From an uncultured Clostridia bacterium (GTDB taxonomy: Bacteria > UBA6262 > WVXT01), in the NCBI GenBank assembly GCA_964403285.1, contig CAYOFG010000001.1:22183-86182 (forward strand): DNA of 64,000 nt. Reading direction: 5' to 3'. Position numbers and translations under genes: made by a program. Positions 11,232-36,528 of this stretch are shown here, piece by piece. Every line of letters starts with the position of its first letter. Within the stretch, counting starts at the first letter, position 1. The notes under the pieces were generated by a model. It saw only the letters and a list, made by a program, of their open reading frames with translations. It ran no database searches and had not been told where the DNA came from.

Positions 11232-11248
11232 TGCCTAAATAACTCCCA

Positions 11249-12094: not shown

Positions 12095-12108
12095 AATCCC
12101 TAAACTCC

Positions 12109-13020: not shown

Positions 13021-13076
13021 AGTTCATTCTTTATATTTGCCTAATTATATTCCCTTTATGCTAATGATTTTCTCTT

Positions 13077-15425: not shown

Positions 15426-15491
15426 TATAACTTCCCAACGTTAGTCTGTTAAATTTTGACTATTTAACTCTATAAAATGTCGTCGCTTTAT

Positions 15492-17541: not shown

Positions 17542-18729
17542 TTATCTATGTCCATTATAAGCCTCCAAGTAGATTCTTCCCCGCCAAGACGGCTCTTTCT
17601 TAATTGTTAATTCAAATAGCGCCTTGCCCCCAATGCCTATAAAGAGAATGGCTCCTAAAGGAAATCCTAATGCATACCAAGGAGCAAAATTATCTTTCTT
17701 ATAAAAAACCATCGCTATAAAAAATAGAATAAGAATTTCCAGACCCGGCCAGAACATCAGGCTTAATTTTATCTGCCAGAATTTAAACACAAGAAGGTAA
17801 ATTAAAATACCAATTGGACTAAGAACGATCAGTATAATTAATGCAATCAAAAGAAAAAAATACCTGTTGCTTTTTAATTGAAAAAATTTATAAAACAGCT
17901 TAGAATAACTAGTTACGATTTCATTCAAATTGTGAAATTTTCGCACCTTTATCATATGAGAACCATCCAATAATGCTGCCCTACATCTTGCTTTCTTAAA
18001 GCTTCCCATCAAAGCAGCCGATTCTATAAATTCGTTTTTTACCGCTTGATGACCTCCTAATTTTTCATATATACTTCTTTTAACAAAGATGAAGTCACCT
18101 TTTGCCTCTATAGCAGTCGTATGCATATCATTTACTTTTTTGGGAGATGGATAAAACCAAGCCTTAATAAAGTTTATACTAGGGGGTATTATTCTCTCCC
18201 AGAAACTTTTGACTAAAAGTCTGTATTTTAAAGTCAGAAAATCAACATCATTTTTAACTGCATACTGATAAACTGAGTTGACAGTCAACGGACTATGGAC
18301 AACATCGGCATCACTAAACAAGAACCACTCTCCTTTCGCTATCTGCGCTCCTTGATGAAGAGCCCAACATTTACCCATCCATCCTCCAGGTAAGGGCGTG
18401 GTTTGAATTAATTTTATCCTTGTATCTTTTTTAGCAAACCCTTGGACAATTTCAAAGGTATGGTCACTGGATTGGTCATCAATGACGATAATTTCCAAAT
18501 TTGGATAGTTTTGTTTAAAAAGAGAATCTAGGCATTCTCCAATTGATTTTTCTTCATTTCTGGCAGGAACTAGAATTGATATAAGTGGATTTGCGCTATT
18601 TAAACTCTCAGCAATAGGTAAAGATTCCCAAGAATTAATATAATGCATTGCCCTTAGGCAACAGAGAATTGTTAAGATTAATATGCTGAATTCAATAATC
18701 TCTACCATCTTCTTTATCTCATTTAACAT
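17542..18729 (-). CDS. Membrane-bound family 2 glycosyltransferase
   Basis: An N-terminal TM helix precedes PLISILVPARNEEKSIGECLDSLFKQNYPNLEIIVIDDQSSDHT and a DADV DxD motif. Several C-terminal TM helices follow, giving a synthase-like topology. Confidence 0.65.
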   Translation of the reverse strand: MLNEIKKMVEIIEFSILILTILCCLRAMHYINSWESLPIAESLNSANPLISILVPARNEEKSIGECLDSLFKQNYPNLEIIVIDDQSSDHTFEIVQGFAKKDTRIKLIQTTPLPGGWMGKCWALHQGAQIAKGEWFLFSDADVVHSPLTVNSVYQYAVKNDVDFLTLKYRLLVKSFWERIIPPSINFIKAWFYPSPKKVNDMHTTAIEAKGDFIFVKRSIYEKLGGHQAVKNEFIESAALMGSFKKARCRAALLDGSHMIKVRKFHNLNEIVTSYSKLFYKFFQLKSNRYFFLLIALIILIVLSPIGILIYLLVFKFWQIKLSLMFWPGLEILILFFIAMVFYKKDNFAPWYALGFPLGAILFIGIGGKALFELTIKKEPSWRGRIYLEAYNGHR

Positions 18730-19624
18730 CCCATTGCTTAATAGGGTCTCTTGAAGTACAATCTATAATACAAATGTCAAGGAATTTTCCAGAAGTTATT
18801 TTTTCTCTGTATTCTACAGCCTTTGATGAATTCCAAATTTCATAAATTCCTTTATTTTTTACATTCCCGAGAATATGTTTACCTTTATAATCCCAGCAAC
18901 AAGGATTTACTGACCCATCCCAATTAATAACCATTCCTTGCGTACAAGGATATCTACCTTGTGCATTATATGGCCTAATTGTACGAAAATTTTTTTGATA
19001 CCTGGAGTAAGAAGTATTTATAGGAACAAACCTATTGAATGTTTCCTGTTTCATATCCATAACATTAAAGGACTTTATGACAACTTCATGAAAACCTATT
19101 TCTCTAGCAAATTTATCCACTAATTCTGTCTGTTCTACCTGATGTAAATTCTCCTTATGAGCAACCATCTGCATAACTAATCTTGTTTTGGTGCCTTCTA
19201 AAACTGGCACTAATTTTTTAACGCCTCTAATTACTCTTTCAAGATTTCCGTTTTTTTGATGTATCTCATAAACTTCCTGGGTCAGTCCATTGATAGAAAT
19301 TATAAGTTCATCCAGAGTTGTGAAAAAACTCAAATCAGAAAAATCTTCCAACTTACACCCGTTTGTGCTGAGTGCTTTTAAACATTTATAATGCCTTATG
19401 CCTTCTAACATTTCTGACAGATGGGGATTTAATAAAGGGTCGCCATAGTTCCATAAGAATGCTTTATAGATATTATTCCCTGCTTCTCTAAAAATATCCA
19501 AAAATAGCTGGGAATCCATATCACCATAACCTCTCAACAATACTGGATTTGGGCATCCAATACATCGATAGTTACATCTGCTACTTATTTCTATGACTAA
19601 TCCTTCTAATACGGGTCCATTCAA
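18719..19624 (-). CDS. Radical SAM enzyme with SPASM/twitch C-terminal Cys cluster
   Basis: The CNYRCIGC (Cx3Cx2C) motif lies near the N-terminus. The C-terminal cluster is NPCCWDYKGKHILGNV...CIIDC. The stop overlaps the downstream GT2 start by 11 nt. Confidence 0.7.
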   Translation of the reverse strand: MNGPVLEGLVIEISSRCNYRCIGCPNPVLLRGYGDMDSQLFLDIFREAGNNIYKAFLWNYGDPLLNPHLSEMLEGIRHYKCLKALSTNGCKLEDFSDLSFFTTLDELIISINGLTQEVYEIHQKNGNLERVIRGVKKLVPVLEGTKTRLVMQMVAHKENLHQVEQTELVDKFAREIGFHEVVIKSFNVMDMKQETFNRFVPINTSYSRYQKNFRTIRPYNAQGRYPCTQGMVINWDGSVNPCCWDYKGKHILGNVKNKGIYEIWNSSKAVEYREKITSGKFLDICIIDCTSRDPIKQWDVK

Positions 19625-19648: not shown

Positions 19649-21634
19649 TTATTCGTATCTCAACGCCTCAATAGGGTCAAGTGTTGAAGCTTTCTGTGCT
19701 GGCCAAAGTCCGAACGCAATGCCTACCATTAAAGAAAAGGTAGTAGCCAAAGTTATAGAGAATAAAGAAATTTTCATTGCCCATCCAGCAAAAGAAGTAA
19801 TATACACAGATGTGCCTATCCCTAATAAAATACCGGCTATTCCGCCGATAAACGACATTAATATTGCTTCAATCAAAAACTGAACCACGATATCTTTCTT
19901 TGTCGCACCAATCGCCTTACGCAGACCAATCTCGCGCGTGCGCTCAGTTACCGAAACCAGCATAATGTTCATAATCCCGATTCCGCCGATTAAAAGTGAA
20001 ATAGCGGCAATTGAACTCAATAATAATGACATAGTCTTAGTGGTGCTTTCTAAAGCGCTCTTAATATCACTTATATTTTGAATCTGAAATGAACTCTCTT
20101 CGTTTTTCTTACGATGGTGTTGCTCTATAATAACCTTAGATACGGCCTCTTTAGCCGCATCAATTAAATCCGCACTTTTTGCCTCTACATAAAAGGCGTC
20201 AATATAATCTTTGCCGAAAAGTCTATACATAGCTGTAGTAATAGGAATAAATACCCGGTCATCTAAATCGTAACTACCCCCTCCACCCCTAACGCGTAAC
20301 ACTCCGATTACTTTGAAGTTGACAAAATTTATCTTTATTGTCTCGCCAATAGGATTGCTATCTCCAAAGAGCTCCTTTGCCACCGTGACACATAATAACG
20401 CTACCTTTTCTCGTGTTTTTACTTCTTCCTCGGTAAAAAATCTTCCCACGGCCGGCCCCGGAGCACCAACTAAAACAAAGTTCACTCCCACTCCTTCAAT
20501 CACAGTATTCCAGTTTTTATTCTTATGGACTATCTGTCCTCTCTGGCTCACGGAAGGGTATGCAATTTTTACTACATCAGTGAGTTTTTCTATGGCAGAT
20601 AAATCCTGAAAAGTAAAACGCGTCACCACCCCTGCCGGCAAAGTTACCCCCCTAACCTTTGGTGGACGAGCCCTGACCATCAGAAGATTAGCACCTGCTA
20701 TTTCAAACTGTTTCTTGATTGCTTCCTTTGCCCCCTGGCCTAATCCTAACATCGTAATAACTGCAGCTACGCCGATTAAAATCCCTAAGATAGATAAAAA
20801 TGAACGCATTTTATGCGTTAACAATGCTGTGCCTGCTTGGCGAGAATAAGCAAAGAATTCAATTCTCCTGGCCTTTCTGTCGGCTGTGGATAAAACCCCA
20901 TCAATTATCTTATCTACCTGACTTTCTTTGGAAGATTTTTGCGGGATTGGGGATTCCTCATCAGAAATGATCCGGCCGTCAAGCATATCAATCACGTGTC
21001 TGGCTGAGGTAGCTATTTCTTTTTCATGGGTGACGATAATAACTGTATTACCTTTTTGATTTAACTCTTTTAGAATTGAGATTATTTCTTCTCTACTTTT
21101 GGAATCAAGATTACCGGTCGGCTCATCGGCCAATATTATCAAAGGTTCATTTACCAAAGAACGCGCAATCGCTACCCGCTGCTGTTGACCGCCGGAAAGT
21201 TCATTTGGCCGATGCGTTATCCTCTCAGAAAGCCCTACTTCCTCAAGTTTTTGTTGGGCGGTATCTTTTAATTGTCGCTTTCCGGCATAAACTAAAGGCA
21301 ATTCCACATTTTCCAAGGCTGTCATCCTTGGCAAAAGATGGAACTGCTGAAACACAAAACCTGCTAAGCGACTGCGTATGGCAGATAATTCCTTATCAGA
21401 AAGTTCGTTAATCTTTCTGTTTCCCAAATAATATTCTCCGGAATCCGGCCTATCGAGCAAGCCCAAAATATGCAAAAGCGTGGATTTACCCGAACCCGAA
21501 GGCCCCATAATCGCCACAAACTCTCCGGGAGCAATTTTCAAAGAGACATCCTGCAAGGCTTTGACTTCTACATTGCCCATCTGATAGTTTTTGGAAATAT
21601 TTCTTAATTCAATCATTTTTTTCTGCGCCACCAC
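19649..21634 (-). CDS. macB: MacB-type ABC transporter (N-terminal ATPase fused to FtsX-type permease)
   Basis: Walker A is GPSGSGKST. The signature is [14 protein letters not shown]. Walker B is [13 protein letters not shown] large periplasmic domain and a four-TM FtsX C-terminus match the MacB architecture. Confidence 0.7.
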
Positions 21635-22575
21635 ATAAAAGGGTTAGTGCCAATAATTGTGCCTTCAGACAGACTATATTTTTTTCTCTTTAAAATTATT
21701 CTATCTTGAGTGGTAATCCCGGAAATAACCTCTATGTTCTTTTCATCCGAGATTCCCAGACTTACGCGCCTCTTTAAAGGTTCTTTGCTATTGCCCTGCC
21801 CAAGCAACACGTAATTTTGCCCTTTTTCCTTATACACCGCCTCCGTCGGGATGACTAAAATATTCTCCTTGTCCTGCTGGATAAAGTCCACAGAGGTATT
21901 CATACCCGAACGCAAAAACTTGGGCACTTCTTCGGGCTTCAAATCTACTTCGTAGATAGTGACATTGTTAACGGTTTTGGATTCATAATAGATGTGTTCA
22001 ACCGTAGCTTTTATTTTGGTATCCGGATAGGCATCGAGAGTAATAATCGCTTTCATATCCTTAGTGATTTTGCTGATATCCGTTTCATCAACCTGTGCCC
22101 GCATAATCAGATGGTCGGATAATACTACCACTGCATCCGTGGTAGTGACCATCTGTCCGGGCTGGATAGTGGCCACAATGACCTCGCCGTCAATTGGCGC
22201 CGGTAACGGTATAGGCCGATAGATCTCCTCCCAGTATTTTAAAGACTCTTCTCCTTTGGCTCTGGCAGTATTCAATAAAGCTGCCCTTTCGGTTGAGTTC
22301 ATCCAAGCCAGAATTTGCCCGGTTTTTACCTTATCTCCTTCCTGGACTAAAATTTTTTCAATTCTACCGTTAACCGGCGGTTTTACTTCCAACCGGTTTT
22401 TGGGAAGGACCGGGCCAGTACATGATATAAAGGTCTGGATAGAGCTGACAACTGGCGTTATCTCTTGCATAACTTCATCAGAGGGCCTCTTTTGCTTCAT
22501 CCGTGTTATAGCTACGCCAGCGATAATCAAAATGACCATAGCAATAAAAAATAATTTTAATTTTTTACTTCGCAT
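21613..22575 (-). CDS. macA: Periplasmic adaptor / membrane fusion protein (HlyD/MacA family)
   Basis: The start is probably the internal MRSKKLKLFFIAMVILIIAG, preceded by an AAGGAGAG RBS. One TM anchor and the coiled-coil/lipoyl-like motifs of RND/MacA adaptors are present. Confidence 0.6.
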   Translation of the reverse strand: MRSKKLKLFFIAMVILIIAGVAITRMKQKRPSDEVMQEITPVVSSIQTFISCTGPVLPKNRLEVKPPVNGRIEKILVQEGDKVKTGQILAWMNSTERAALLNTARAKGEESLKYWEEIYRPIPLPAPIDGEVIVATIQPGQMVTTTDAVVVLSDHLIMRAQVDETDISKITKDMKAIITLDAYPDTKIKATVEHIYYESKTVNNVTIYEVDLKPEEVPKFLRSGMNTSVDFIQQDKENILVIPTEAVYKEKGQNYVLLGQGNSKEPLKRRVSLGISDEKNIEVISGITTQDRIILKRKKYSLSEGTIIGTNPFMWWRRKK

Positions 22576-23860
22576 ATTCCAATGTCTCTCCTTTCGCGTG
22601 AATCCAGGCTGCCTCAGCAAGCAAGGCATTTGCCTGAGAATTCAGGTAAGTTTTTTTGGCCGTCACCAAATCATTCTGAATAATAATCCAGTTATCAAAG
22701 GTAATAAAACCTGCTGAATACTCTGCCTCTGCTATCTTTGAGCGTTCCTCAGCGGCATTAAGCAATTCCCGCCTCACTTCCACTGTTTCCACTGCATCCT
22801 GTAATGCCACCCAAGTCTGCTCTAAGTTTACTACCACGCTGTCCCAGGTGCTTCTGGCATTGGCCTCGGCTTGATTGTAAACAGCTTGGGCTTTGGATAC
22901 CTGGGCAAGCAGCAAACCGCCTTCAAATATCGGCAGGGTCAAACTCAAGCCCAAACTATAATTGTTGTTTCGTGGCGGCCACGACGAACTTGTTCTATTG
23001 GCTCCAGCTTCACCGGAAAGCTGCGGAGCAAAGTCGGCATAGGCGGATTTAATATCAAAAAAGGCAGCATTTTTCTTAGCAAAAGCCTGCAGTAAAGAAG
23101 GATTATTTTGAGCCAATACCTCCAAGTCTGGCTTATCTTTAGCTGCATCGTACACGGTAAAATCTGCCTTTACCGACATCGGCTTAAATTCCTTACGCCC
23201 CATTTCTTTACTTAATTGCCTTTGCACCAGGCTAACATCTCTTTCCGCCTGTGCGAGTTCAAAATTTGCCTGGGAAATATTTGCTTCTGCAGTCAATAAA
23301 GCGCCTTTGTGCTCCAGACCAGACTCATAACGGAGGGCAATTAATTCAAGACTGTCTCTTCTGATTTTCACAATGTCTTCAGCCACGCGGATTAACTCCT
23401 GGGCCTTTAATAAATTAATAAATGCGGTGCGTAAATTAAGCCTTACCTGGCTTGAAGTAAAGCGATAATTCTGCTGGGCAACTTTGATATTTTCTAAAGC
23501 GGCTTTCACATTATTTATTTTTTTGAAGCCGCCAAATATCAGCTGTGTACCAGAGACGCCGTATGTGTAAGTATCTGTCGTGGTGCGTGTAGTGGAACCT
23601 GTAGTGGTATTAGTAACGCTCGTGCCTGCCGTTGAGGCATCCAGGTTACTGTCGATTTGCGGATACAACCCGCTTGCGGTTATGGCTTTATCAGCTTTTT
23701 GTTGGTTAACATTCTCCTGCGCCGAGATTAAATCCGGGTGATTTTGGGCAGCTTCTCTGATACAATCTTGCCAAGTAAGCACTTCCCCGGCGATTCCCTT
23801 AGTAAGAGTAACGCATAAAAATAATAAAAATATGAAAAAAATCCTACAGTATTTGTACAT
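22565..23860 (-). CDS. TolC-like outer membrane efflux protein
   Basis: A signal peptide is followed by two repeated alpha/beta halves with conserved coiled-coil segments typical of the OEP family. Its ATG overlaps the upstream CapK-like stop (ATGA arrangement). Confidence 0.6.
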   Translation of the reverse strand: MYKYCRIFFIFLLFLCVTLTKGIAGEVLTWQDCIREAAQNHPDLISAQENVNQQKADKAITASGLYPQIDSNLDASTAGTSVTNTTTGSTTRTTTDTYTYGVSGTQLIFGGFKKINNVKAALENIKVAQQNYRFTSSQVRLNLRTAFINLLKAQELIRVAEDIVKIRRDSLELIALRYESGLEHKGALLTAEANISQANFELAQAERDVSLVQRQLSKEMGRKEFKPMSVKADFTVYDAAKDKPDLEVLAQNNPSLLQAFAKKNAAFFDIKSAYADFAPQLSGEAGANRTSSSWPPRNNNYSLGLSLTLPIFEGGLLLAQVSKAQAVYNQAEANARSTWDSVVVNLEQTWVALQDAVETVEVRRELLNAAEERSKIAEAEYSAGFITFDNWIIIQNDLVTAKKTYLNSQANALLAEAAWIHAKGETLEYAK

Positions 23861-25278
23861 TATCTACTCACCCAGCCTGATGATTTCCCTTTATCATCAA
23901 TCGTTGAAACTTTTCCGACTTCGTCTATGTGTGTTTTAGCGAATTTAGAAATAACCATTTTGTGTTTATTTAATACTAAAGAGATATCTGAAACAACCTC
24001 TACCTTTACTTTCACTATTTGATAAAGGCCTTTATCACTCAAAATATTACCGATTGCCTCCTCTACCTGTTTAGTTAATTGTTTTCCTCCTTCACTCGCG
24101 ACTATCTTAACTCTTAAAAAAGCGTTTTCTTCCTGAATGACCCGGAATTTTTCTAAACCAGGTATTTTAAAATTAAAAAGAATGGGGTCGATTACTTCGT
24201 AATCCCCATTTTCTTTATCAACCCAAATGATATCCCCTTCTCTACCTAAAATTTTTCCAATTACTGCCAGAGTAGAACCACACGGACATTTTGTCGTTGA
24301 CATCTGGACAATATCATTCAAACGGTACCGTATTATAGGTTGAATAAAATTCATTAAGTTCGTAATGACTGCTTTTCCAGGTTTTCCGGAAGAAACAGGA
24401 TTATCATTAATATCAAGAACCTCCAACACAAGTGCGTGAGAATAAACATGGAGAGAATGAAATTTGCATTCAGCAGCTATAGGCCCCGTCGCCTCCGTAG
24501 CAAAGTAACCACTATAGGGAACGCAATTAAATGCCTCAATTACAGCCTTCTTCATCTCTTCGGTAGGCATAAACCCTCCCCAAAAGACTTTCTTAGGCGA
24601 TATATGAAGGATATTTTTTAATTTCTGCTCGGCAAGAATGCTAAGTATCGAAGGATAACCTAATAGCATGTCTGGATTAAATTCATTTAATTCCTTCACT
24701 ATCACTGATATGGGTTTGCGAACCGAAAAATGCCGTACCTCTGCTAAGAAACGAGGTATACTTTTATAAAATACAGTAGAACCAACGTGCGGATTGTCGG
24801 TAAAAACACAGGCCATACGGGGCCTCTTCCTGAAAATATGCCTGATTAACTCGTAATTTTTGTATGATATTTTAGACGCTATTTCATAATCAAAACAGGA
24901 ATCATTAAAAACTGAAATCCATAAAAGACCACTCGTACCTGAGCTATGTATTACTGTATATTTCTTATTTATCTTAAAGGAATCCTCTTCTGTATTGCAA
25001 AAATCAATTAATTGACTTTTTGTAATATCCTTGGCTGTAAGAATGCTATCTAAATTATCCATAAAGGTTTTTTTATCAATCAGTGGAAGATTCTCTATCC
25101 TCATATCTTTATCAATATTTATATTGCGGTATAAATCTCCATAAAAGGTAGAGTTCTGTTTTGCGAATCTTAATAGCCGCAAGAATCTTTGTTGTTGAAT
25201 ATGTTGAATAGATGCGTAATTCCGCCGACTTACTGTATCGAAATCATAGATATATTTTAAAGTTCTTATTGCCCCCAT
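23860..25278 (-). CDS. Phenylacetate-CoA ligase-like adenylate-forming enzyme (CapK / F390-synthetase family)
   Basis: YTVIHSSGTSG is the AMP-binding P-loop analogue. RYRLNDIV matches the PaaK RYRTGD motif. The size and overall layout match the family. Confidence 0.5.
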   Translation of the reverse strand: MGAIRTLKYIYDFDTVSRRNYASIQHIQQQRFLRLLRFAKQNSTFYGDLYRNINIDKDMRIENLPLIDKKTFMDNLDSILTAKDITKSQLIDFCNTEEDSFKINKKYTVIHSSGTSGLLWISVFNDSCFDYEIASKISYKNYELIRHIFRKRPRMACVFTDNPHVGSTVFYKSIPRFLAEVRHFSVRKPISVIVKELNEFNPDMLLGYPSILSILAEQKLKNILHISPKKVFWGGFMPTEEMKKAVIEAFNCVPYSGYFATEATGPIAAECKFHSLHVYSHALVLEVLDINDNPVSSGKPGKAVITNLMNFIQPIIRYRLNDIVQMSTTKCPCGSTLAVIGKILGREGDIIWVDKENGDYEVIDPILFNFKIPGLEKFRVIQEENAFLRVKIVASEGGKQLTKQVEEAIGNILSDKGLYQIVKVKVEVVSDISLVLNKHKMVISKFAKTHIDEVGKVSTIDDKGKSSGWVSR

Positions 25279-25290
25279 ATATTCATCCTC

Positions 25291-27441
25291 TCAAAACTTT
25301 TTCCACATAGTCTTTGCTTTTTGGCTATGAAAAAAGATTTTTTCAGAAAACTTAACTTCTTTAGAATCAATAGCCAAAAAAGAATTAACTTTTCTCTCTT
25401 GGGATTCCAGCCAAAGTATTCTTCCCAGAAAATTTATTTTTCCTTCAAAATCAGCAAAGCGTTGACAATGGAGTTGATAGATAAAATAAACAATATTTCC
25501 ATCTATATTTATTGCTACGCCTAACTTTTCATTTTTCGAAGGAGCCCACTGCGTGCGTAATTCTTCTATCTCAACTTTAGGGCGCTTCCCTTTATATGGC
25601 AAAAGCAACGTGAAAAAGGTATCTGTGCTACGATTATGTTTTATGTATTTCAGAAAGGGAGAGACACAAGGCTCATTATTATAAATAACTCTACCTTTTG
25701 TAATTACCATTTCATCTATATCATCCTTATATAAAGGAACAACAAGTATCCCCACATTACCATTTTTCACATTCACCATCTTTTTTTTGCTATCTATCTC
25801 TACTTTTCCAGGGAAAAAGTGAAGTAAAAACTCATAGTGGTTGGCGAAAGCCCACTGTTCATTCTGTACCTTAAGTTCATCAATTATTATCCAGTATTTT
25901 CCCTTTATAAATAGAATCTTACGGTCGTGAATTAAGGGGTTCATCAGATTAAGATATCCTTCGTGTTTGGCCTCTACAAAATCAAAGACCTCTTTGGATA
26001 TCCATCTCTCTATTGAGACCCTTGGCCATCCACAGTTTTCCAGAAATGCTTTAACATTAGGATACAATGGTATTTTGTCAAGATCATAGTTAACGTCCCA
26101 TTGCCAGATATCTCGTAAGAGAATCTGGTCCCGATTATTAACTTGTATGGTATTATGCGCAGCAGTCCGTTTATACCAACCTGCGTAGTCATAATGGTCG
26201 TAAGAACAATTCCCCGAATCAACAATAATTGGCTTTCCATGGGCATAAAGCTCAAAACCTAACTTACCTGCATGAGTATGAAAGAACCATCCTGGATAGG
26301 CATCAAAAAATAATTGTTGGGTATCGTCTTTATCGCGCATAACCGCAAAACCAGCTTCAGGGAAAAGCTTTGTCTTTTTCATCTCTGATAGCATATGTTG
26401 TTTGTGTCTTCCTTGCCTTCGATTCTTAAGATTATCGGCAAAACGCAGAATGAACCCTAAAGTTGGTGAAAAAGGCAACATAGCCCATTTATTCTGAAAA
26501 AACATATGATTAGCGCATAATAAAAAAGTTTTTATATCTACAATGTAACTATCGTTAATTAAAGGAAGAGTTTCGTCTGGCCTGATAGCAGTCACAACAA
26601 AATCTATCATTTTCTTAGTAAAGTTCATTAATTTTCTGGATACCTTAATTCTATTTATCTTAGCAATAAGAATGGCATCCATGTACAGTTGTGCCACAGT
26701 TATATGATAACTTAACGACCCTTCTGCTTGAACACCGTCAGAAAAAAATTGACGTTTTATTTGTTTTTCTAAATTATCATATGCTAAATTCATCCAAACT
26801 TTAGCTTCTTTGAACTCTGGGAACACTATCCCCAAATGGGCTAAGGCAACTAACTCGTGAATCTGCCAGTTACCAAATTGATACCGTGGGTTAGAATTTA
26901 CAGCATACAAATATTTACCATGGGAAAAAATTGTCTCAATTATAAACAATCTATCATCGGATGAAATTTGCTTTGAATCTTTGAGAAAAAAGTACATCCA
27001 CAACAAATTAACCACACGAATTGCTGCATTCAAACTGCCCCATACAAGTCCAGTATGTTGATCTTTTACATCGGAAGAGAGAGGATTCTTCTTACACCAG
27101 TCGCGAAGCAAATATAAGCTTTTTCTTGCATATTGTGGCTTCCCATAGAGAAAATACATAAGACCTAAAGAATTCAAGAAACCCAGTCTATTCAACTTAG
27201 CAGATTTTTCAGTATTTCTGAACTTCCCCCAATCAATATCATCTCCAAAATGTGTCCATCCCCTCGTTACATTATGAAACATATATATCCTGCTATCCTC
27301 ACCAACTAAAAACGTATGCCGTAGAGCTGCATCGGCGACTTTCTTCTCAAAGGAAGATTCTCCCAAAGTGCGCAATGGTCTTTTTAGCAACGAGGCTCTT
27401 TCAGATTGAAAATAGAATGCTGGTTGCTTCCGCGGTGCCAA
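25291..27441 (-). CDS. Heparinase II/III-like family protein
   Basis: The C-terminal segment HTHAGKLGFELYAHGKPIIVDSGNCSYDH matches the Hepar_II_III signature (H.H.d.lsfel...G..l.vD.G...Y). Length is 716 aa. Confidence 0.5.
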   Translation of the reverse strand: MAPRKQPAFYFQSERASLLKRPLRTLGESSFEKKVADAALRHTFLVGEDSRIYMFHNVTRGWTHFGDDIDWGKFRNTEKSAKLNRLGFLNSLGLMYFLYGKPQYARKSLYLLRDWCKKNPLSSDVKDQHTGLVWGSLNAAIRVVNLLWMYFFLKDSKQISSDDRLFIIETIFSHGKYLYAVNSNPRYQFGNWQIHELVALAHLGIVFPEFKEAKVWMNLAYDNLEKQIKRQFFSDGVQAEGSLSYHITVAQLYMDAILIAKINRIKVSRKLMNFTKKMIDFVVTAIRPDETLPLINDSYIVDIKTFLLCANHMFFQNKWAMLPFSPTLGFILRFADNLKNRRQGRHKQHMLSEMKKTKLFPEAGFAVMRDKDDTQQLFFDAYPGWFFHTHAGKLGFELYAHGKPIIVDSGNCSYDHYDYAGWYKRTAAHNTIQVNNRDQILLRDIWQWDVNYDLDKIPLYPNVKAFLENCGWPRVSIERWISKEVFDFVEAKHEGYLNLMNPLIHDRKILFIKGKYWIIIDELKVQNEQWAFANHYEFLLHFFPGKVEIDSKKKMVNVKNGNVGILVVPLYKDDIDEMVITKGRVIYNNEPCVSPFLKYIKHNRSTDTFFTLLLPYKGKRPKVEIEELRTQWAPSKNEKLGVAINIDGNIVYFIYQLHCQRFADFEGKINFLGRILWLESQERKVNSFLAIDSKEVKFSEKIFFHSQKAKTMWKKF

Positions 27442-27531
27442 GTAAGTTACTAACCCCCTCTCTCATGTTCATAAACTCTTTTCTAATTTATCAGTTAATT
27501 TCTCCATGCCTGACCAATCCCTTTTCAAAAT

Positions 27532-28767
27532 CTAAATTAACTGTTGTTTCCTTAGGCACTCTATTGCTGTAGTTACACCCAGGAATTCATCAAAATATTT
27601 CTTTGTCTTGCTCAAAGACAACTTATACTTCTCATCATTAAATAAATTATTTATTTTCTCAAAGGCAACTTCTGGACTAGTTTCAAATGGAGGAAACAGT
27701 AGATCGCCCACTCCTAACTCTTTTACAATAAAAGCATTATATTCATTTTCTACCTGCGTAGGAATGACGAGATGGGGAACTTCCCATGCTATTGCTTGCG
27801 AGGTTGTATTGAGACCGCCATTGGAGACAAGGACTATATTATCCAACTGAAAAACAAGCTCAAAGGGTATAAACGATGATACTACAACATTATCTGCCCC
27901 GCATATAGTCTTGTGACTGCTGTCTTCTACCACTATGAGCTGAAACTCAGTATTAGTAAATAACTGCTTAACCTTCTCAACCCATTCTTCTGCTCCGCTC
28001 CTATCAATTATTAATCCCGATAGTCTCAAAATTATGGTTTTGCGATGAGGCTCAATATTCATATTGCGTCTGCGTAGTTGAATAGTCACTTCATTAGTTG
28101 GCTGTTTCTTAATTTTCCTGGGGAAGAACGGACCTACAATACGAAAATTCTCAGGTAATGAACAATCTCCGGCAAAGACAGGGACGGTACGCAGTAGAGT
28201 ACAAAACGGTGAAATATGTACTTGCATTAAATCAGCCAGTGCAGACATTTTCATATTCTTCGTGAGCCAATTTAGCTTCTTTGCCAACTGTTGAAATCTC
28301 AAATCAATCGATTCTGCAGAGATGGCATCGAGCCCTGACCTCTCAAAGACATCCTGAAGAAGAAATCTGTATCCAGGCAGATACCAGAGCTGGGCTAACA
28401 TAGAAACCCAAGGGATATTGTGTATATATGCTGAGATTCCTGCAGTTAATCTAAAATCACTGATCATAAGGTCAGGCTTAAATTCCTCTATTACCTCTTT
28501 CTCGTCGGATAGACATCTTTCAATATAGTCACCTTCGGTAATGGCCTCAAACAAGCCCCACTCAGATTCTGCCAAATAACAAATATCGAGCACCTCATAA
28601 ATTTCGTTAATACCGAAGTCTTTTGCTCTCTGCCGCTGGGAACTTCCAATGACAAAAGCAACAGTATGGCCTTCTGTATTCAATGCGTTACCTAACTGCA
28701 TGCAGTCATAAAGATGAGCTTCTCCGCACGATGCTGCCATAAATAGTATTCTCTTTTTGTCCCACAC
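27532..28767 (-). CDS. GT1-family (UDP-glycosyltransferase / MGT-like) glycosyltransferase
   Basis: The N-terminus ILFMAASCGEAHLYDCMQLGNALNTEGHTV is typical. The C-terminal donor-binding motif NIVLVSNGGLNTTSQAIAWEVPHLVIPTQVENEYNA matches (hGG.gT..eal..GvP.v..P...DQ..NA). Confidence 0.65.
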   Translation of the reverse strand: MWDKKRILFMAASCGEAHLYDCMQLGNALNTEGHTVAFVIGSSQRQRAKDFGINEIYEVLDICYLAESEWGLFEAITEGDYIERCLSDEKEVIEEFKPDLMISDFRLTAGISAYIHNIPWVSMLAQLWYLPGYRFLLQDVFERSGLDAISAESIDLRFQQLAKKLNWLTKNMKMSALADLMQVHISPFCTLLRTVPVFAGDCSLPENFRIVGPFFPRKIKKQPTNEVTIQLRRRNMNIEPHRKTIILRLSGLIIDRSGAEEWVEKVKQLFTNTEFQLIVVEDSSHKTICGADNVVVSSFIPFELVFQLDNIVLVSNGGLNTTSQAIAWEVPHLVIPTQVENEYNAFIVKELGVGDLLFPPFETSPEVAFEKINNLFNDEKYKLSLSKTKKYFDEFLGVTTAIECLRKQQLI

Positions 28768-28783
28768 TTATGTGCCCTCACTT

Positions 28784-30010
28784 TTATATAATAGTTACTT
28801 CTCTCGTAAGATAAGTCAACATATCATATCCATCCCAAACAACGTCAAAGAGATTTAATGCCTGTCCAATTCCAACTATACGGTCTATGCCATGGCCACC
28901 TAGTTGCCAGGCAAATTCTTTCAGCTCATTTCCAGAGAACCCATACACAGCAAGCGTTTGATCTTTGAAGGTTATCAGCTCAAGAACATCCATTAAATTC
29001 GGTTTTTCTGTTTCTAGAAAGACTCCACCTCCGCTATGGAGTTCACGTAACTTCTTTTCAAACTTCTGGATATGAACTCTATAGGGTAAATCTGTTCCTG
29101 CAGTTGAAAGTTTGTCTGCCAGGCCTTCAGCGGCATATCTATATCCTGTAATCATCCGATCTATACCAACTCCTCCTTCCCAATCAATTTTTCTCTGACA
29201 TACAATTTTTTTAAGGGCTGGCCAGAATCGGCTTTTGGCTCTATTTATATGTTCTTGTTCACCTATCCAAAAAATCAATCTCGGCGAAGCACATGCTTTC
29301 TGATTTAATACAAAAGCGTCAGTGAAGAATTTTTTTGAAAGTGTTTCAAGCTCTTCTTCAGATGCATTCAAAACCGCATCAGCCTTAAGGGCGGCCATAG
29401 AGAACCTATCTGCAAACACAAGTTCAATGGCCCTGGGAGGTAAAGGGATAGTTCTGATTTGTCTTATAGTTTCATCGCCACCCCAAATTACTCGCACGTG
29501 GCAATACTGAGATAATTCCTTAGTAATGGCCTCTTCATGACCATAACTTATCACCATGCTTCTCTCTCGAATTGCTTTAAAACGCTCCTGTTCTAAAATT
29601 GAGTTTAGCATATCGAGAAGTAGCTTAATTTGTGTGCTTCTTTTCTGAGAGAGACGAATTATATTAATATTACCTACTAGCAGTGATAAAAACCATGAAT
29701 AGATACACACGGAGTCGACATTTGAAGAAGGAAAATGCAGAACTACTCCCCGTGGCAGCCAAATTTTGCCCTGGCGTTTTGATTCATAATACTGATATAT
29801 CTCCTTCAGGTTTCTTTCACACAGCCAGTGTGCCAATGCTGACGCCTCTATATATGAAATAAGTTCCTTATTACTCATAATGGAATTTGAGACCTCTTGT
29901 ATAAATGCCAAGCATAAAGGTTCAAACGGTCTCATTGGTTTAGCTCGAGTAACCCGCCCAAGCAATTCTTGCCAATCTCTCTCTCTTTCCTTAGGTAGTA
30001 AGATTTCCAT
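28784..30010 (-). CDS. LuxC-family acyl-CoA (acyl-protein) reductase
   Basis: VLHFPSSNVDSV, VRVIWGGDETIRQI and NQKACASPRLIFWIG align with Vibrio LuxC HLLAGNVPLSG, VIVAWGGPDAI and YDQRACFSAQNIYYMG. I placed the start at the internal MEILLPK to limit overlap with the upstream gene, but this is uncertain. Confidence 0.55.
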   Translation of the reverse strand: MEILLPKERERDWQELLGRVTRAKPMRPFEPLCLAFIQEVSNSIMSNKELISYIEASALAHWLCERNLKEIYQYYESKRQGKIWLPRGVVLHFPSSNVDSVCIYSWFLSLLVGNINIIRLSQKRSTQIKLLLDMLNSILEQERFKAIRERSMVISYGHEEAITKELSQYCHVRVIWGGDETIRQIRTIPLPPRAIELVFADRFSMAALKADAVLNASEEELETLSKKFFTDAFVLNQKACASPRLIFWIGEQEHINRAKSRFWPALKKIVCQRKIDWEGGVGIDRMITGYRYAAEGLADKLSTAGTDLPYRVHIQKFEKKLRELHSGGGVFLETEKPNLMDVLELITFKDQTLAVYGFSGNELKEFAWQLGGHGIDRIVGIGQALNLFDVVWDGYDMLTYLTREVTII

Positions 30011-31121
30011 AAGTTCCTTTTCTATTATCGTAATCATAAGCATATGTGTCGCTACATCCACGAAGTTCTGCCGCAGGCATTCGGCCGTGGACCTGAAAAT
30101 ATTTTCCCTTCCGTCCGCAAGGACAATCATCTTCGCCCAAAACCGTTCCCAGGTCTTCTGTTAACACACTATGCCCAGGATAACTTCGGGCTAAGAGACT
30201 AAGTACTTGTATAAGCCCTTTGCGACCTTTTGGGAGAGGCTCAAGAGAAACTAAATCACGGATAATTATATCTGCAAAATCAGGAGCGTGCAGGCATTTT
30301 TTTTCGCACTCAAGGAAAACAGCCCCTAACGCCTCCACCATCGTATAAAAATTGTATATTCTCTTAACACCGAACTGTTCACTCAATTTCAGTTTGTATG
30401 TTTCAGTGTCCACGGCACTCTCCTCAAGTTTTTTCCAACCCCCAGTATGGATAATTATGCTATTCTCCAAATCTAAGTGCCGTTTCTTCTCAACAAAGGG
30501 CAGATATAAATGCTCCCAAATCATAAAAGTAAAACCAAATAAAACAACCCTTTCTCCACAGTGTTTTTTAAGAAAAGCATCCAATTCTTTCCACTTAATA
30601 TTCAATGAGTCATCGAGCAAGAATAGATGGTCGCTGCTAAGAGTTAGCATGCCATATAAAGCGACATCACGCGCTTTTAAATTGAATTTATTTTGAACCA
30701 GGCTCACATTATCAATTAAAATCATAGGGAGTTTCTTTTCACCAATACAAGAGGATATTACAGATCTAAAACCTTTGGCTTGTAATATAGATGTTTCCTT
30801 ATCCATAAAAATATACGAGGGAACCTGAAATGTTGTACCACTTGATGACAATATTCTTACTATTGAGTCCAGGGAGACGCTTCGAAATTTATGGCTTTTA
30901 AACAAGCGCGCTGGTAACATAGGCACATCCTTTAAATTGCCTGTCGAAGTTAGTGAAATTGGTAATGCTTCTATTATCCGTTTATACGGTTGGCAGTGAT
31001 CCCGGTGTTCAAATGTGAGCTCCCATAGTAAATCATCAAGAAGTTTCTGTTTTTCTCCTGCATTGAGACGATAGGGGTTATTAGTAAAAAGGTACTCAAT
31101 GTTAGTCCACGAAATGGGCAT
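29991..31121 (-). CDS. LuxE-family acyl-protein synthetase
   Basis: VPMLPARLFKSHKFRSVSLDSIVRILSSSGTT matches the LuxE hallmark LPLLPARLFKEHKLLSV...SSGTTG. The C-terminal CPCGRKGKYFQVHGRMPAAELRGCS matches LuxE CPCGRNG...GRAG...KGCA. Confidence 0.65.
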   Translation of the reverse strand: MPISWTNIEYLFTNNPYRLNAGEKQKLLDDLLWELTFEHRDHCQPYKRIIEALPISLTSTGNLKDVPMLPARLFKSHKFRSVSLDSIVRILSSSGTTFQVPSYIFMDKETSILQAKGFRSVISSCIGEKKLPMILIDNVSLVQNKFNLKARDVALYGMLTLSSDHLFLLDDSLNIKWKELDAFLKKHCGERVVLFGFTFMIWEHLYLPFVEKKRHLDLENSIIIHTGGWKKLEESAVDTETYKLKLSEQFGVKRIYNFYTMVEALGAVFLECEKKCLHAPDFADIIIRDLVSLEPLPKGRKGLIQVLSLLARSYPGHSVLTEDLGTVLGEDDCPCGRKGKYFQVHGRMPAAELRGCSDTYAYDYDNRKGTYGNLTT

Positions 31122-31135
31122 CTTTTTCTTCCTAT

Positions 31136-32323
31136 TTAATCAGAGTTTAGATATTCCAAAATACATCCTGCTACAACAGCAACGCCAAGAGGAAGCACAT
31201 CTTCATCTAAATCGAAAAAAGGGCTATGAAGAGGATAAACTATTCCTTTTTTTCTATTACGAATTCCTATTGAAAAAATAACCCCTGGAACTTCTCGAAA
31301 AAAGTAACCAATATCTTCGCCTTCAAAGAAAGGATATTTGAAGTTAAATATGTTTTTGGACCCGAGGAGTCTTCTCCCTACATCAGCTACTATGCCGTTC
31401 AATTGAGGATTATTTACAACAGACGAATAGAAAGGGATGAATCGAATCTCACACTGCGCTCCATATCCTCGACAAATAGCACGTAGTGTCTTTTTAATTT
31501 TACCCACTACATTCCTGCGGGTAATACTATCGAGGGTTCTTATCGTACCTTTTAGTCTTACACGATCAGGAATTACATTACTTGCTGTTCCTCCGTGAAT
31601 TTCTCCTATTGAAATGACAACCGGCACACATGGATTTTGCTTTTGAGGAACAATAAACTGAAGGGCCTCTACAACTTTTGCTGTAATATAAATTGTATCT
31701 ACTGTCTCCCAGCGTTGGGCAACATGTCCTCCTTTGCCAATAATGGATATTTCGAAGTCATCTACATTAGCAGTAACAATACCGCGACGTATCCCTATTT
31801 TACCCGCATCAAGAAATGGACTTAAGTCAAAACCAAATACCGAATCAACCTTCGGGTTCTTTAAGGCTCCTGCAGAAATCATTGCTTGTGCTCCACCAGA
31901 GCTTTCTTCATTTGGCTGAAAGATAAACTTCACCTGCCCTTTCAATTCCTCGCGAATTTTACCTAATAATGAAGCAACTCCTAAAACGATTGCCATCTTC
32001 CCATCATGGCCACATGCATGCATAACGCCAGGAACTTTAGAAGCATACTTCTTTTTAGTTCTTTCCTGAATAGGCAATGCATCCATATCCGACCTAATAA
32101 CAACGGTTTTCCCTTTTTTTCTTCCTTTAAGAAGAGCAACTACGCCTGTCCTTGCAACTTTCTCTTTTACCTTGAGACCCGCTCGCTTTAGTTCTTTGGC
32201 TATTAATTTAGCAGTTTTTACTTCTTGAAATCCTAATTCGGGATAAGAATGGATTTGTCTTCTTATCTTGATAACTTCAGACTTAAGTTTAAGAGATTGC
32301 TTTAGTAAATTATCTAACTCCAT
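31136..32323 (-). CDS. M20D-family amidohydrolase (N-acyl-amino-acid amidohydrolase / aminoacylase-like)
   Basis: The N-terminus IRRQIHSYPELGFQEVKTAKLIAKEL and the metal-binding HACGHD region are characteristic of M20D peptidases such as the hippurate hydrolase family. Confidence 0.65.
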   Translation of the reverse strand: MELDNLLKQSLKLKSEVIKIRRQIHSYPELGFQEVKTAKLIAKELKRAGLKVKEKVARTGVVALLKGRKKGKTVVIRSDMDALPIQERTKKKYASKVPGVMHACGHDGKMAIVLGVASLLGKIREELKGQVKFIFQPNEESSGGAQAMISAGALKNPKVDSVFGFDLSPFLDAGKIGIRRGIVTANVDDFEISIIGKGGHVAQRWETVDTIYITAKVVEALQFIVPQKQNPCVPVVISIGEIHGGTASNVIPDRVRLKGTIRTLDSITRRNVVGKIKKTLRAICRGYGAQCEIRFIPFYSSVVNNPQLNGIVADVGRRLLGSKNIFNFKYPFFEGEDIGYFFREVPGVIFSIGIRNRKKGIVYPLHSPFFDLDEDVLPLGVAVVAGCILEYLNSD

Positions 32324-32327
32324 CTTT

Positions 32328-32546
32328 TTAAAATCCTCCTTGGCGCTCCCATCTGTGAATAGTCAAATCCCTGTCGGCAAGCAAGTTCAAGGTGATCCAC
32401 AGCATTCCCCCTGACTCCTCTATAAATATCACTGGTCTCTGTTGGAAGTCACTTTCCCGCAGTAACAGACTGAACTGCCTCCGGATTCTCCCAATATCCT
32501 GTCCGTCCTCTACAGGAACCATCCATACAACGCTTCTTGTATCCAT
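32328..32546 (-). CDS. Small hypothetical protein (72 aa)
   Basis: The ORF is tightly packed between the kinase stop (8 nt upstream) and the M20 start (5 nt downstream), which suggests a real co-transcribed gene. I recognise no motif. Confidence 0.3.
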   Translation of the reverse strand: MDTRSVVWMVPVEDGQDIGRIRRQFSLLLRESDFQQRPVIFIEESGGMLWITLNLLADRDLTIHRWERQGGF

Positions 32547-36514: not shown

Positions 36515-36528
36515 TTGCTAAATTACCG

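Follow-up and report, generated by a model that had tools for sequence, protein, structure and literature searches.

The locus analysed here raises the question of what a LuxE/LuxC pair, i.e., an acyl-protein synthetase and an acyl-thioester reductase, does where no luciferase accompanies it. The pair is encoded within a 64,000-nucleotide stretch of DNA (the window), in a block of six genes at 23860-32323 that all run in the same direction on the minus strand, with the boundaries given in the original prediction and with profile matches far above chance (Table 1). All the family assignments made there (LuxE, LuxC, CapK-like, heparinase II/III-like, GT1 and M20) hold in profile searches. Pfam scans of the large ORFs in the 64-kb window matched no luciferase or LuxD family, in agreement with the absence of luxAB and luxD claimed before; luxG is also absent from these 64 kb, unlike in luminous bacteria. 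From 37829 down to 17542 the intergenic gaps do not exceed 25 nt, save one of 90-165 nt, and in the downstream array they are mostly below 70 nt.

Table 1. Features of the LuxE-LuxC locus, with positions in the window and the profile evidence for each.
Feature	Coordinates	Strand	Evidence
Downstream co-directional array: rSAM/SPASM B, GT2, DUF362, GT2, GT4, unknown, alpha/beta hydrolase, GT2, two ABC exporters, FeeM-like acyltransferase	5145..19624	-	Pfam
MacB-type ABC ATPase/permease	19649..21616	-	MacB_PCD, ABC_tran, FtsX
Periplasmic adaptor (MFP)	21613..22539	-	TIGR01730 115 bits (cut-off 94.9); gene call in L001
TolC-family outer-membrane channel	22565..23860	-	PF02321 214 bits
PaaK/F390-synthetase/CapK-class adenylate-forming enzyme, 472 aa	23860..25278	-	TIGR02304 119.6 bits, below cut-off; no Pfam match
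Heparinase II/III-like, 691-716 aa (start 27366 or 27441)	25291..27441	-	Hepar_II_III_N (PF16889) E=4e-47; Hepar_II_III_C (PF07940) E=3e-29
GT1-type (GT-B) glycosyltransferase, 411 aa	27532..28767	-	Weak: PF13528 27.3 bits; TIGR01426 53.5 bits, below cut-off
LuxC-like acyl-thioester reductase, 408 aa	28784..30010 (ORF to 30130)	-	PF05893 E=2.4e-27, 96 bits (cut-off 21)
LuxE-like acyl-protein synthetase, 376 aa, adenylating half	29991..31121	-	PF04443 E=6.2e-49, 167 bits (cut-off 24.9)
M20D amidohydrolase, predicted N-acyl-amino-acid type, 395 aa	31136..32323	-	Peptidase_M20 and M20_dimer E=7.8e-38; passes TIGR01891
72-aa ORF, doubtful reality	32328..32546	-	No family match; not ACP-like
Ser/Thr protein kinase-AAA_16-TPR (STAND-type) regulator, 1234 aa	32554..36258	-	Pkinase 143 bits, AAA_16 76 bits
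s89 and s95, paralogous small basic proteins, possibly ribbon-helix-helix regulators	36227..36798	-	No family match
Radical SAM/SPASM enzyme A, 336 aa, opens tight array	36819..37829	-	PF04055, PF13186

The motifs on which the pair was first recognised are present: LPARLFK, SSGTT and CPCGR in the LuxE-like protein, WGG and ACxS (as ACAS) in the LuxC-like protein. Both proteins share their folds with the Lux fatty acid reductase of P. phosphoreum (PDB 7xc6), to which they align over the full length (LuxE-like against 7xc6_E, E=1.6e-17; LuxC profile A3 against 7xc6_A, E=8e-13), and in both systems the genes are adjacent. K230, R347 and C356 of the LuxE-like protein show no variation in alignment A1 and correspond to the reference residues K238, R355 and C364 of P. 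phosphoreum LuxE (PMC9157457), i.e., the Lys/Arg pair and the C-terminal acyl-cysteine, while the invariant C240 of the LuxC-like protein (QKACAS) aligns with the active-site cysteine of LuxC (QQACFS). By analogy with P. phosphoreum LuxC-LuxE, the two proteins would form a two-enzyme carboxylate reductase: LuxE would adenylate a carboxylic acid with ATP and hold it as a thioester on Cys356, and the acyl group would then move on to LuxC (Cys240), from which NAD(P)H would free it as an aldehyde. The likeness to the Lux enzymes is nevertheless distant, with only about 20-25% identity as read off the alignment, a CPCGR motif of the PaaK type that is missing from true LuxE, and NCBIfam equivalog scores far under the cut-offs (75.6 against 550 for LuxE and 34 against 750 for LuxC), and the substrate is probably not myristate. 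The likely start of luxC at 30010 leaves a 20-nt overlap with luxE.

Comparison with relatives showed that the pair without luciferase is no oddity. The LuxE clade of the window was matched in at least 586 species, and a library clustered at 50% identity gave 343 representatives at E<=1e-30, so that LuxC/LuxE without luciferase is the norm for the clade and the pair is a member of a very common non-luminous branch, which usually decorates sugars of the cell surface. LuxC adjoins LuxE in 86 of 86 loci (80 from a species scan and six fetched earlier, with some duplicates), and many representatives are LuxE/LuxC fusions of 750-870 aa; together with the gene overlap, this supports coupling of the two enzymes. 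The window LuxE is 42-56% identical to LuxE of the 80 scanned genome loci, the top match at 56% being that of an Omnitrophota SAG, and 54% identical to that of the Brevibacillus cassette (L008). We know of no biochemically characterised member of the non-lux clade.

The genome-neighbourhood comparison that the original prediction had proposed revealed a sugar-island cassette in the clade and distinct partners in Omnitrophota-type loci. Of 78 non-Omnitrophota loci, about 70 carry an ACP-SDR-AMP ligase-LuxE-LuxC cassette within sugar-modification islands, and de novo clustering of neighbours across 82 loci found ACP in 67, SDR in 68 and AMP ligase in 72. DegT, NeuB, PseG, CMP-transferase and RmlB genes are also among the neighbours, and the islands concerned are those of amino-sugar and nonulosonic-acid modification; the clade normally tailors acyl substituents of these sugars by means of the cassette. 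The same cassette was previously reported from flagellin glycosylation islands of Aeromonas and Enterobacteriaceae. The one genetically tied case is wbeN of V. cholerae O1, located among genes for a C4 dihydroxy-acyl group (wbeK-O, VC0248-0252), where a LuxC/LuxE-type reductase serves in tailoring a short hydroxy-acyl substituent of a surface glycan. The chemistry of this tetronate pathway was reportedly proposed in 1995. WbeN, compared here by its description, is a LuxC/LuxE fusion that works with ACP and ligase, unlike the pair of the window.

As in the flagellin islands of Aeromonas group II and Enterobacteriaceae, luxE and luxC of the window are adjacent and overlapping and a glycosyltransferase gene follows luxC. 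In contrast to these islands, the window lacks ACP, AMP ligase and SDR as well as sugar genes of the Pse, DegT and Rml kinds (NeuB homologues were not found in it either), and the pair is accompanied by the kinase, M20D, radical SAM, heparinase-like, PaaK-like ligase and MacAB-TolC genes. ACP and AMP-ligase HMMs gave no match at E<=1 in seven loci (the whole window, L004, L007, L009, L090, L109 and L110), while the positive controls L008 and L041 scored 114-617 bits. The Omnitrophota-type LuxEs form a single clade in a neighbour-joining tree without support values, built from a sample picked by similarity to the query. What is new is a monophyletic Omnitrophota-type variant, probably of the phylum Omnitrophota, which lacks the usual partners (ACP, ligase and SDR) and is tightly packed with an outer-membrane export pump; the pattern is drawn from about 10 loci, mostly short metagenomic contigs. 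Orthologues of the kinase STAND regulator lie beside LuxE-LuxC in the window, L090, L110, L007 and L004, and radical SAM/SPASM genes accompany the pair in the window, L090, L004 and L007, with A copies of 60-62% identity on both sides of it in L004. L109 and L004 bring in an iron-dependent alcohol dehydrogenase (Fe-ADH), a pairing of the V. cholerae O1 wbe type, and a class III aminotransferase (Aminotran_3).

The reading that we favour, to which we give about an even chance as a whole, is that an ATP- and NAD(P)H-dependent carboxylate-to-aldehyde module provides an exported glycoconjugate with one of its substituents. The substrate would be a small polar acid, either dicarboxylic or an N-acyl amino acid, and less likely a long-chain fatty acid. 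The aldehyde may be converted to an alcohol or amine and be built into, or attached to, a glycan or glycoside that contains uronic acid. The GT1, GT2 and GT4 enzymes of the neighbourhood, the PaaK-like ligase and a cytoplasmic heparinase-fold enzyme would make this product, and the MacAB-TolC-type pump would export it. Against this count the lack of nucleotide-sugar genes in the window, the lack of ACP as a substrate carrier and the resemblance of GT1 to small-molecule glycosyltransferases.

The original prediction suggested a different substrate, a fatty acyl group; in a model of this kind LuxE/LuxC would reduce a long-chain fatty acid to a fatty aldehyde or alcohol, GT1 would turn it into an alkyl glycoside or glycolipid and MacAB-TolC would export it; heterocyst glycolipids and DevBCA-TolC offer the analogy. 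The donor domain of GT1 resembles natural-product and small-molecule UGTs, the MFP and MacB proteins match models of the DevB and DevA families, though below threshold, a biosynthetic gene and TolC overlap stop-on-start by one base, and myristate is a substrate of genuine LuxCE (PMC9157457). Yet this route is rather unlikely: the equivalog scores fall far short, the clade resides in sugar-modification islands and not in lipid pathways, no LuxD-type thioesterase, fatty-acid synthase or PKS genes lie near LuxE-LuxC, the Fe-ADH, class III aminotransferase and M20D of relatives suit small polar substrates, and L007 has a GT2 in place of GT1. The fatty-acyl substrate is unsupported, while the accompanying idea of a glycosylated or N-acylated product is a possible one.

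The M20D protein scores 349.7 bits on the TIGR01891 amidohydrolase model (cut-off 153.75), and its nearest structures are YxeP (E=6e-76), ILL2 and an N-acyl-glutamine aminoacylase. Its gene adjoins LuxE-LuxC in the window, L090 and L110 and lies within 5 kb in L007. M20D is one of the recurrent partners on which the favoured reading draws. Its adjacency also speaks for a protected-amino-acid route, modelled on ArgB/ArgC/ArgD/ArgE logic, in which LuxE/LuxC would reduce an N-acylated acidic amino acid at its side-chain carboxyl to the semialdehyde, a class III aminotransferase or Fe-ADH would convert it, M20D would deacylate it and the PaaK-like enzyme would ligate the diamino or hydroxy amino acid so formed onto a glycan carboxylate. 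M20D reaches 293 bits, under the cut-off, on an N-acetyl-diaminobutanoate deacetylase model, Aminotran_3 and Fe-ADH come after LuxC in L109 and near it in L004, an Orn/DAP/Arg decarboxylase gene follows M20D in L087, and the presence of a heparinase-fold enzyme points to a partner that bears uronate. We consider the route unlikely all the same, as its accessory genes are spread over different loci, with M20D as the only one in the window, no N-acetyltransferase gene is adjacent and the scheme is drawn wholly by analogy.

The glycan side of the favoured glycoconjugate reading draws on the heparinase-like protein, which has both Pfam domains of the PL12 heparinase III/DS-epimerase fold and matches heparinase III structures 4mmh and 5jmd. 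Its Y245/H246 and H505 align with Y294/H295 and H510 of HepIII, and these conserved residues support the reading, although the Asn-His pair is replaced by Asn-Trp (N191-W192). Unlike PL12 heparinase III, it has no evident signal peptide, its N-terminus not being hydrophobic; its gene lies within a biosynthetic operon, and its clade is small and lineage-restricted. The fold is also able to support uronate C5-epimerisation (PMC8006597), and the enzyme may be a cytoplasmic lyase or C5-epimerase. The adenylating enzyme matches PaaK structures (4r1l, E=1.4e-16) and, all below cut-off, F390-synthetase-related, PaaK-like and DVU1553-type NCBIfam models; its gene adjoins the heparinase-like gene in L007, L087, L090 and L108. 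The pair is clade-restricted: beyond about 8 close homologues of the heparinase-like and about 12 of the adenylating protein, identity falls to 27% and 31%, respectively. GT1 has weak MGT/EryCIII-like matches and a C-terminal donor domain resembling CalG1, YjiC and UGTs, with orthologues in L087 (66%) and L090 (89%). Small amphiphiles are the typical cargo of MacB pumps, and with the likeness of GT1 a glycolipid or small glycoside fits as well as a polymer.

One may ask if the two sets of genes share a product at all. In L087 and L108 the heparinase-like/adenylating pair has no LuxE-LuxC in view, which counts against the favoured reading, as the connection between the two modules may be a loose one. 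In a further reading, LuxE-LuxC-M20D with the kinase would be a mobile accessory module inside an unrelated polysaccharide-export operon. L087 keeps the order rSAM-s89-s95-GT1-Hepar-Aden complete, with no kinase, M20, LuxE or LuxC between s95 and GT1, and the surroundings of LuxEC are quite different in L109 and L004. Such mere neighbourhood is nonetheless quite improbable in view of the tight co-directional packing with overlapping gene ends, of L007, where LuxEC again stands beside GT, Hepar and Aden at only 56-60% identity and in another gene order, and of L009, where TolC-MFP adjoin LuxEC.

Two small ORFs directly after radical SAM/SPASM A (a 79% identical copy of which is present in L087) bring to mind a RiPP-type cluster comparable to darobactin, where the SPASM enzyme would modify s89/s95 peptides, LuxE/LuxC would reduce the carboxylate of a peptide to the aldehyde and export would be by way of the MacB-type pump; MFP and MacB do have sub-threshold matches to the DarC/DarD export models. 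However, s89/s95 are conserved at 51-77% in L007, L087 and L009, with a constant, ribbon-helix-helix-like core (beta-strand/helix/GG/helix) and variation only in the C-terminal tail, and they are fused in L007. No NCBIfam equivalog, peptide maturases included, passed for radical SAM/SPASM A, and five glycosyltransferases and a polysaccharide-lyase-fold enzyme fit such a cluster badly, which makes it very unlikely. The 72-aa ORF has a partial 79% match in L090 only and is absent from L007.

The exporter lies next to the block, as originally described, and its link to the biosynthetic genes is conserved in L090, L088 and L009, the adenylating gene-TolC-MFP-MacB order being kept in L088 and L090. 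The reported overlap with the TolC start is real, the TAA stop and the ATG start having one base in common (TAATG), but the overlapping gene is the last one of the block, i.e., the adenylating gene, and not one upstream of it. As in DevBCA-TolC and MacAB-TolC systems, a MacB-type ABC protein, adaptor and TolC are encoded together beside biosynthetic genes, whereas the window exporter does not reach the cut-offs of the equivalog or subfamily models for MacB, DevA and DevB. GT2, GT4 and the unknown protein after MacB are 52-66% conserved in L088, DUF362 is 68% identical in L007, and one of the two ABC exporters is fused to HD-GYP according to Pfam. The GNAT gene at 5145, once suggested to belong to the same theme, is real and FeeM-like (PF21926, 36.6 bits against a cut-off of 27) and stands in the same co-directional array; it is 18 kb away, and the shared theme has no support from the comparison of loci.

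The six-gene block at 23860-32323, in which the original prediction had seen a LuxC/LuxE pair lacking luciferase, was confirmed, and its families were assigned by Pfam and NCBIfam profiles (table). All motifs quoted for LuxE and LuxC were found in the proteins, and Pfam scans of the large ORFs of the 64-kb window revealed no luciferase or LuxD family, so that this observation stands, whereas in the lux system luxAB and luxD are linked to the pair. An alpha/beta hydrolase encoded further 3′ was considered as LuxD and rejected, since it matches only generic Abhydrolase families. Every sizeable ORF of the region lies on the minus strand, and from the gene of a radical SAM (rSAM)/SPASM enzyme at 37829 down to a GT2 gene at 17542 the intergenic gaps are at most 25 nt or negative, with the sole exception of 90-165 nt ahead of the heparinase-like gene.

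Features of the window and their coordinates
Feature	Position	Strand	Remarks
AddAB-like pair, UvrD-helicase/PD-(D/E)XK nucleases	42366-48536	-	beyond the Fe-alcohol dehydrogenase gene
Fe-alcohol dehydrogenase	41212-42363		
Schlafen/AlbA_2-HATPase_c_4 gene and rmuC	38378-41024	-	between the array and the Fe-alcohol dehydrogenase gene
Best promoter-like site	38142-38114		11/12 matches
s89 and s95	36227-36798	-	small, basic, paralogous
M20D amidohydrolase	31136-32323	-	above TIGR01891 cut-off; nearest structures YxeP, ILL2, N-acyl-glutamine aminoacylase
LuxE-like	29991-31121	-	PF04443, E=6e-49
LuxC-like, 408-aa form	28784-30010	-	PF05893, E=2e-27; 20-nt overlap with luxE
GT-B glycosyltransferase	27532-28767	-	donor domain like GT1 small-molecule UGTs
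Heparinase II/III-like	25291-27441	-	PF16889 and PF07940
PaaK/F390-synthetase-class adenylating enzyme	23860-25278	-	
TolC, periplasmic adaptor (MFP), MacB	19649-23860	-	G+C 0.42-0.44 vs 0.33-0.40 in flanking biosynthetic genes
DUF362 protein	15492-17243	-	583 aa
Alpha/beta hydrolase	11249-12094		
Second ABC half-transporter	8368-10194		
ABC exporter with fused HD-GYP	6021-8318	-	transmembrane and ATPase domains, C-terminal HD-GYP phosphodiesterase domain
Two PilZ proteins	4147-4952		
TPR-GAF histidine kinase	1749-4160		
HD-GYP response regulator	386-1537		

Both members of the pair belong to their Pfam families with ease (LuxE-like, PF04443, 167.3 bits against a cut-off of 24.9; LuxC-like, PF05893, 96.3 against 21). 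They fall far under the NCBIfam equivalog cut-offs (75.6 vs 550 for NF052244, LuxE; 34 vs 750 for NF052251, LuxC) and are therefore paralogous relatives, not lux orthologues. The LuxE-like protein aligns end to end with LuxE of Photobacterium phosphoreum (7xc6_E, E=1.6e-17). In that enzyme, Lys238 and Arg355 were described as acting together in adenylation and thioesterification, and the acyl group was placed on Cys364 of the C-terminal TRxxKGCxLS loop (PMC9157457). K230, R347 and C356 (RGCS) align with these three residues and are invariant in an alignment of 21 homologues. For the LuxC-like protein a single-sequence PDB search matched no structure; a 20-sequence profile reached LuxC 7xc6_A (E=8e-13), whose QQACFS cysteine is matched by C240 (QKACAS), an invariant residue. 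Judged from these aligned residues, the catalytic apparatus of both proteins is intact, and since it is conserved, the two-step route from acyl-AMP through acyl-S-LuxE and acyl-S-LuxC to the aldehyde is structurally plausible.

Hundreds of species have annotated LuxE/LuxC pairs of the non-luminous kind, with the substrate established for none. A LuxE query retrieved at least 6655 proteins at E≤1e-10 (8000 candidates scored). With E≤1e-30 as the limit, a library clustered at 50% identity yielded 343 representatives, a good part of them LuxE/LuxC fusions of 750-870 aa in both gene orders. When a single genome was scanned for each species, at least 586 relatives were confirmed in many phyla. LuxC adjoins LuxE in 86/86 loci, and the window LuxE-like protein is 42-56% identical to the LuxE of 80 genome loci, most of which carry a cassette. 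De novo clustering of neighbours clearly showed this canonical cassette, with an ACP (79 aa), an SDR and an AMP-dependent ligase ahead of LuxE-LuxC (present in 67, 68 and 72 of 82 loci, respectively), usually among NeuB, PseG, CMP-transferase, GNAT, DegT, RmlA/B or split-transketolase genes. These five cassette genes have been described in flagellin glycosylation islands of Aeromonas group II (98 strains; PMC7874193) and of Enterobacteriaceae (PMC4875605), and V. cholerae wbeN mutants resist phages reported to need the O1 antigen. Given this distribution and the sugar islands, there is nothing unusual in LuxCE without luciferase, which is mostly found where surface-sugar substituents are tailored. 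In the cassette carrier Aeromonas AH-3 a pseudaminic acid derivative of 376.14 Da and an unexplained moiety of 102 Da have been reported, and the paper suggests a 'liposugar' (PMC7874193). By arithmetic both masses fit dihydroxybutanoyl (316.13 - 42.01 + 102.03 = 376.15), which would be a C4 hydroxy-acyl group like the cholera tetronate; this is a mass coincidence and not a demonstration.

The window shares with the cassette the LuxE-LuxC sequence clade and the adjacent, co-directional order of the two genes, but differs in what surrounds them. HMMs built from cassette members detected neither ACP nor AMP ligase at E≤1 in the 64-kb window or in the Omnitrophota-type LuxE-LuxC loci L004, L007, L009, L090, L109 and L110, while the positive controls from Brevibacillus and Aeromonas scored 114-118 bits (ACP) and 498-617 bits (AMP ligase). 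ACP and ligase are thus absent across the Omnitrophota-type loci, and the PaaK-like enzyme of the window is of a different class from the cassette AMP ligase. No SDR stands next to the pair, the sole SDR match in the window lying 26 kb off (56829-57638), and homologues of the Pse/NeuB, DegT and RmlB clusters were not found among the window proteins. A 72-aa ORF at 32328-32546 was considered as the missing ACP and rejected: it matches no ACP HMM or Pfam family, has no Ser-containing ACP motif and is poorly conserved.

For LuxE, the adenylating enzyme and the heparinase-like protein alike, the nearest named homologues come from Candidatus Omnitrophota, and the assignment to this group is based on them. 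Near-identical contigs occur in three Logan runs, and one JGI contig (L090) is 89-95% identical. In a neighbour-joining tree, drawn without support values from a sample biased by similarity, the Omnitrophota-type LuxEs group together. Aldehyde-handling and deacylating partners recur among the relatives of this type. The M20D amidohydrolase accompanies the pair in the window, L090, L110 and L007, and a kinase-STAND protein in these four and L004. rSAM/SPASM enzymes, some divergent, occur in the window, L090, L007 and L004 (there on both sides of LuxE-LuxC), an Fe-alcohol dehydrogenase with a class III aminotransferase in L109 (directly 3′ of LuxC) and L004, a split transketolase with an SDR in L110, and TolC-MFP in the window, L090 and L009. 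The Fe-alcohol dehydrogenase of the window itself is only 33-34% identical to those that follow LuxC in L109 and L004. An ArgBCDE-like protected-amino-acid route, in which the M20D enzyme would remove the N-acyl group, is rather unlikely in our estimate. Earlier work covers, short of biochemistry, the enzymes, their pairing without luciferase and the connection with glycan tailoring. What appears undescribed is the arrangement of the Omnitrophota-type genomes, supported by about 10 independent loci, in which the pair lacks an ACP, is associated with kinase, M20D and rSAM and is coupled to an exporter; a literature search for Omnitrophota together with LuxE gave no relevant paper.

Downstream of the pair, the heparinase-like protein carries the hallmarks of PL12, namely both heparinase II/III domains and the aligned Tyr-His and His: Y245/H246 and H505 match Y294/H295 and H510 of P. 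heparinus heparinase III (4mmh alignment, with a 24-residue signal offset applied to the numbering), in which H295 and H510 are important. The Asn-His pair is represented by N191-W192, and the HepC equivalog NF045573 was missed (155.6 vs 700). Whereas PL12 heparinase III is a secreted or periplasmic degradative enzyme with a signal peptide, the N-terminus of the window protein has no hydrophobic stretch, and it is therefore probably cytoplasmic. DS-epimerase 1, which has the heparinase fold, performs C5-epimerisation of uronates at the polymer level, and small active-site changes were argued to turn a lyase into an epimerase (PMC8006597). Together with the residues of the heparinase-like protein, this makes a uronic-acid-containing glycan a likely intermediate of the operon. 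Papers on genes of the heparinase II/III family within O-antigen clusters were searched for, and none was found.

Separate from LuxE-LuxC, the heparinase-like and the adenylating enzyme make up a second pair that co-evolves tightly; about 8-12 close homologues exist for each, beyond which identity drops to about 30%. Their genes adjoin in the window, L090, L007, L087 and L108, and in L087 and L108 they occur with no LuxE/LuxC pair in view. It is quite improbable, in our judgement, that the modules are merely adjacent and share no common product. In L108 (69-11371) an M20-adenylating-heparinase-like-M20 set lies directly 3′ of bshC, bshA and bshB (bacillithiol biosynthesis) and a cysteine-desulfurase-like gene, which may be chance or may hint at a GlcN-malate-type small glycoside.

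The TAA stop of the adenylating gene and the ATG of the TolC-family gene have one base in common, and adaptor and MacB-type ABC protein follow. ABC_tran, MacB_PCD and FtsX domains, adaptor and OEP channel are thus encoded together, as in exporters of the MacAB-TolC type, and the score of 506 vs the MacB equivalog cut-off of 966 indicates membership of the MacB family, not orthology. The relative locus L088 repeats this order: TolC-MFP-MacB come after the adenylating gene, and next stand the same GT2, GT4 and unknown proteins that the window has. Beyond the pump lie rSAM/SPASM enzyme B, GT2, DUF362, GT2, GT4, an unknown protein, the alpha/beta hydrolase and GT2, and on the 5′ side of the block rSAM/SPASM enzyme A, s89, s95 and a Ser/Thr kinase-AAA_16-TPR protein of 1234 aa. 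LuxE and LuxC are thereby part of one closely packed operon that also encodes glycosyltransferases and a tripartite exporter. The DUF362 protein is 68-89% conserved in Omnitrophota-type loci (L007 19229-20953; L087 1-280), in L087 with ferredoxin-type 4Fe-4S domains, and L090 has about 2.4 kb extra (17748-20146), missing from the window, between its GT2 and DUF362 genes.

From this arrangement we infer, at about even confidence, that the pair reduces a small polar acid and that the aldehyde moiety ends in a glycan or glycoside exported by MacAB-TolC. The carboxyl group of the acid would be converted to an aldehyde, which would serve as such or first become an alcohol or an amine; the resulting moiety would be built into the glycan or glycoside, and the product would leave through the exporter. 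A fatty alcohol or aldehyde glycolipid, the model in line with the original prediction, we consider unlikely. Even if the locus proves ordinary, it sets right a frequent mis-annotation, the reading of 'fatty acid to fatty aldehyde' from the Lux names. A bolder version of the small-acid reading, which we regard as doubtful, would make the Omnitrophota-type pair a carrier-protein-independent carboxylate reductase under Ser/Thr-kinase STAND control that, with M20D, rSAM/SPASM, the cytoplasmic heparinase-fold enzyme and the clade-specific PaaK-like ligase, makes an unprecedented aldehyde-, alcohol- or amine-bearing glycoconjugate for export by MacAB-TolC. Such a glycoconjugate might sit on the surface or be secreted, and might matter to the host-associated lifestyle of these very small cells.

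The main interest of the locus is a tractable way into the chemistry of a very widespread, uncharacterised enzyme pair. With two overlapping genes and an amidohydrolase next to them, the ACP-less version is compact and complete in itself, and thus well suited to working out the chemistry of the clade as a whole, which is relevant to flagellin and O-antigen decoration in pathogens, e.g., Aeromonas and V. cholerae. For the uncultured Omnitrophota, moreover, few other biosynthetic loci give access to envelope or secreted products.

The small proteins s89 and s95 are 51-77% conserved in Omnitrophota-type loci (L007 4597-5148, L087 5852-6459, L009 7-279), and L007 has them as one fused ORF. The pattern of beta-strand/helix/GG/helix in both suggests that they bind DNA as ribbon-helix-helix proteins; they match no Pfam or NCBIfam model, and none backs a regulator or a RiPP precursor. 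Neighbouring rSAM/SPASM enzymes might call to mind a RiPP cluster, which is highly improbable: s89 and s95 are unlikely precursors, with a conserved core like ribbon-helix-helix and the fusion in L007. A promoter/terminator scan gave counts no higher than the shuffled expectation, and the best promoter-like site, in the 550-nt gap 5′ of the first gene, is only suggestive.

The G+C of the stretch from about 4 to 40 kb is below that of the housekeeping part at 42-58 kb. Farther 3′ of the glycosyltransferases the array continues with two ABC exporters, one with HD-GYP fused, a FeeM-like acyltransferase, a pair of PilZ proteins, and a histidine kinase together with its neighbouring HD-GYP response regulator; the glycosyltransferase array is thus flanked by genes of c-di-GMP signalling. 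In L109 an RR-GAF-HD-GYP gene lies directly 5′ of LuxE.
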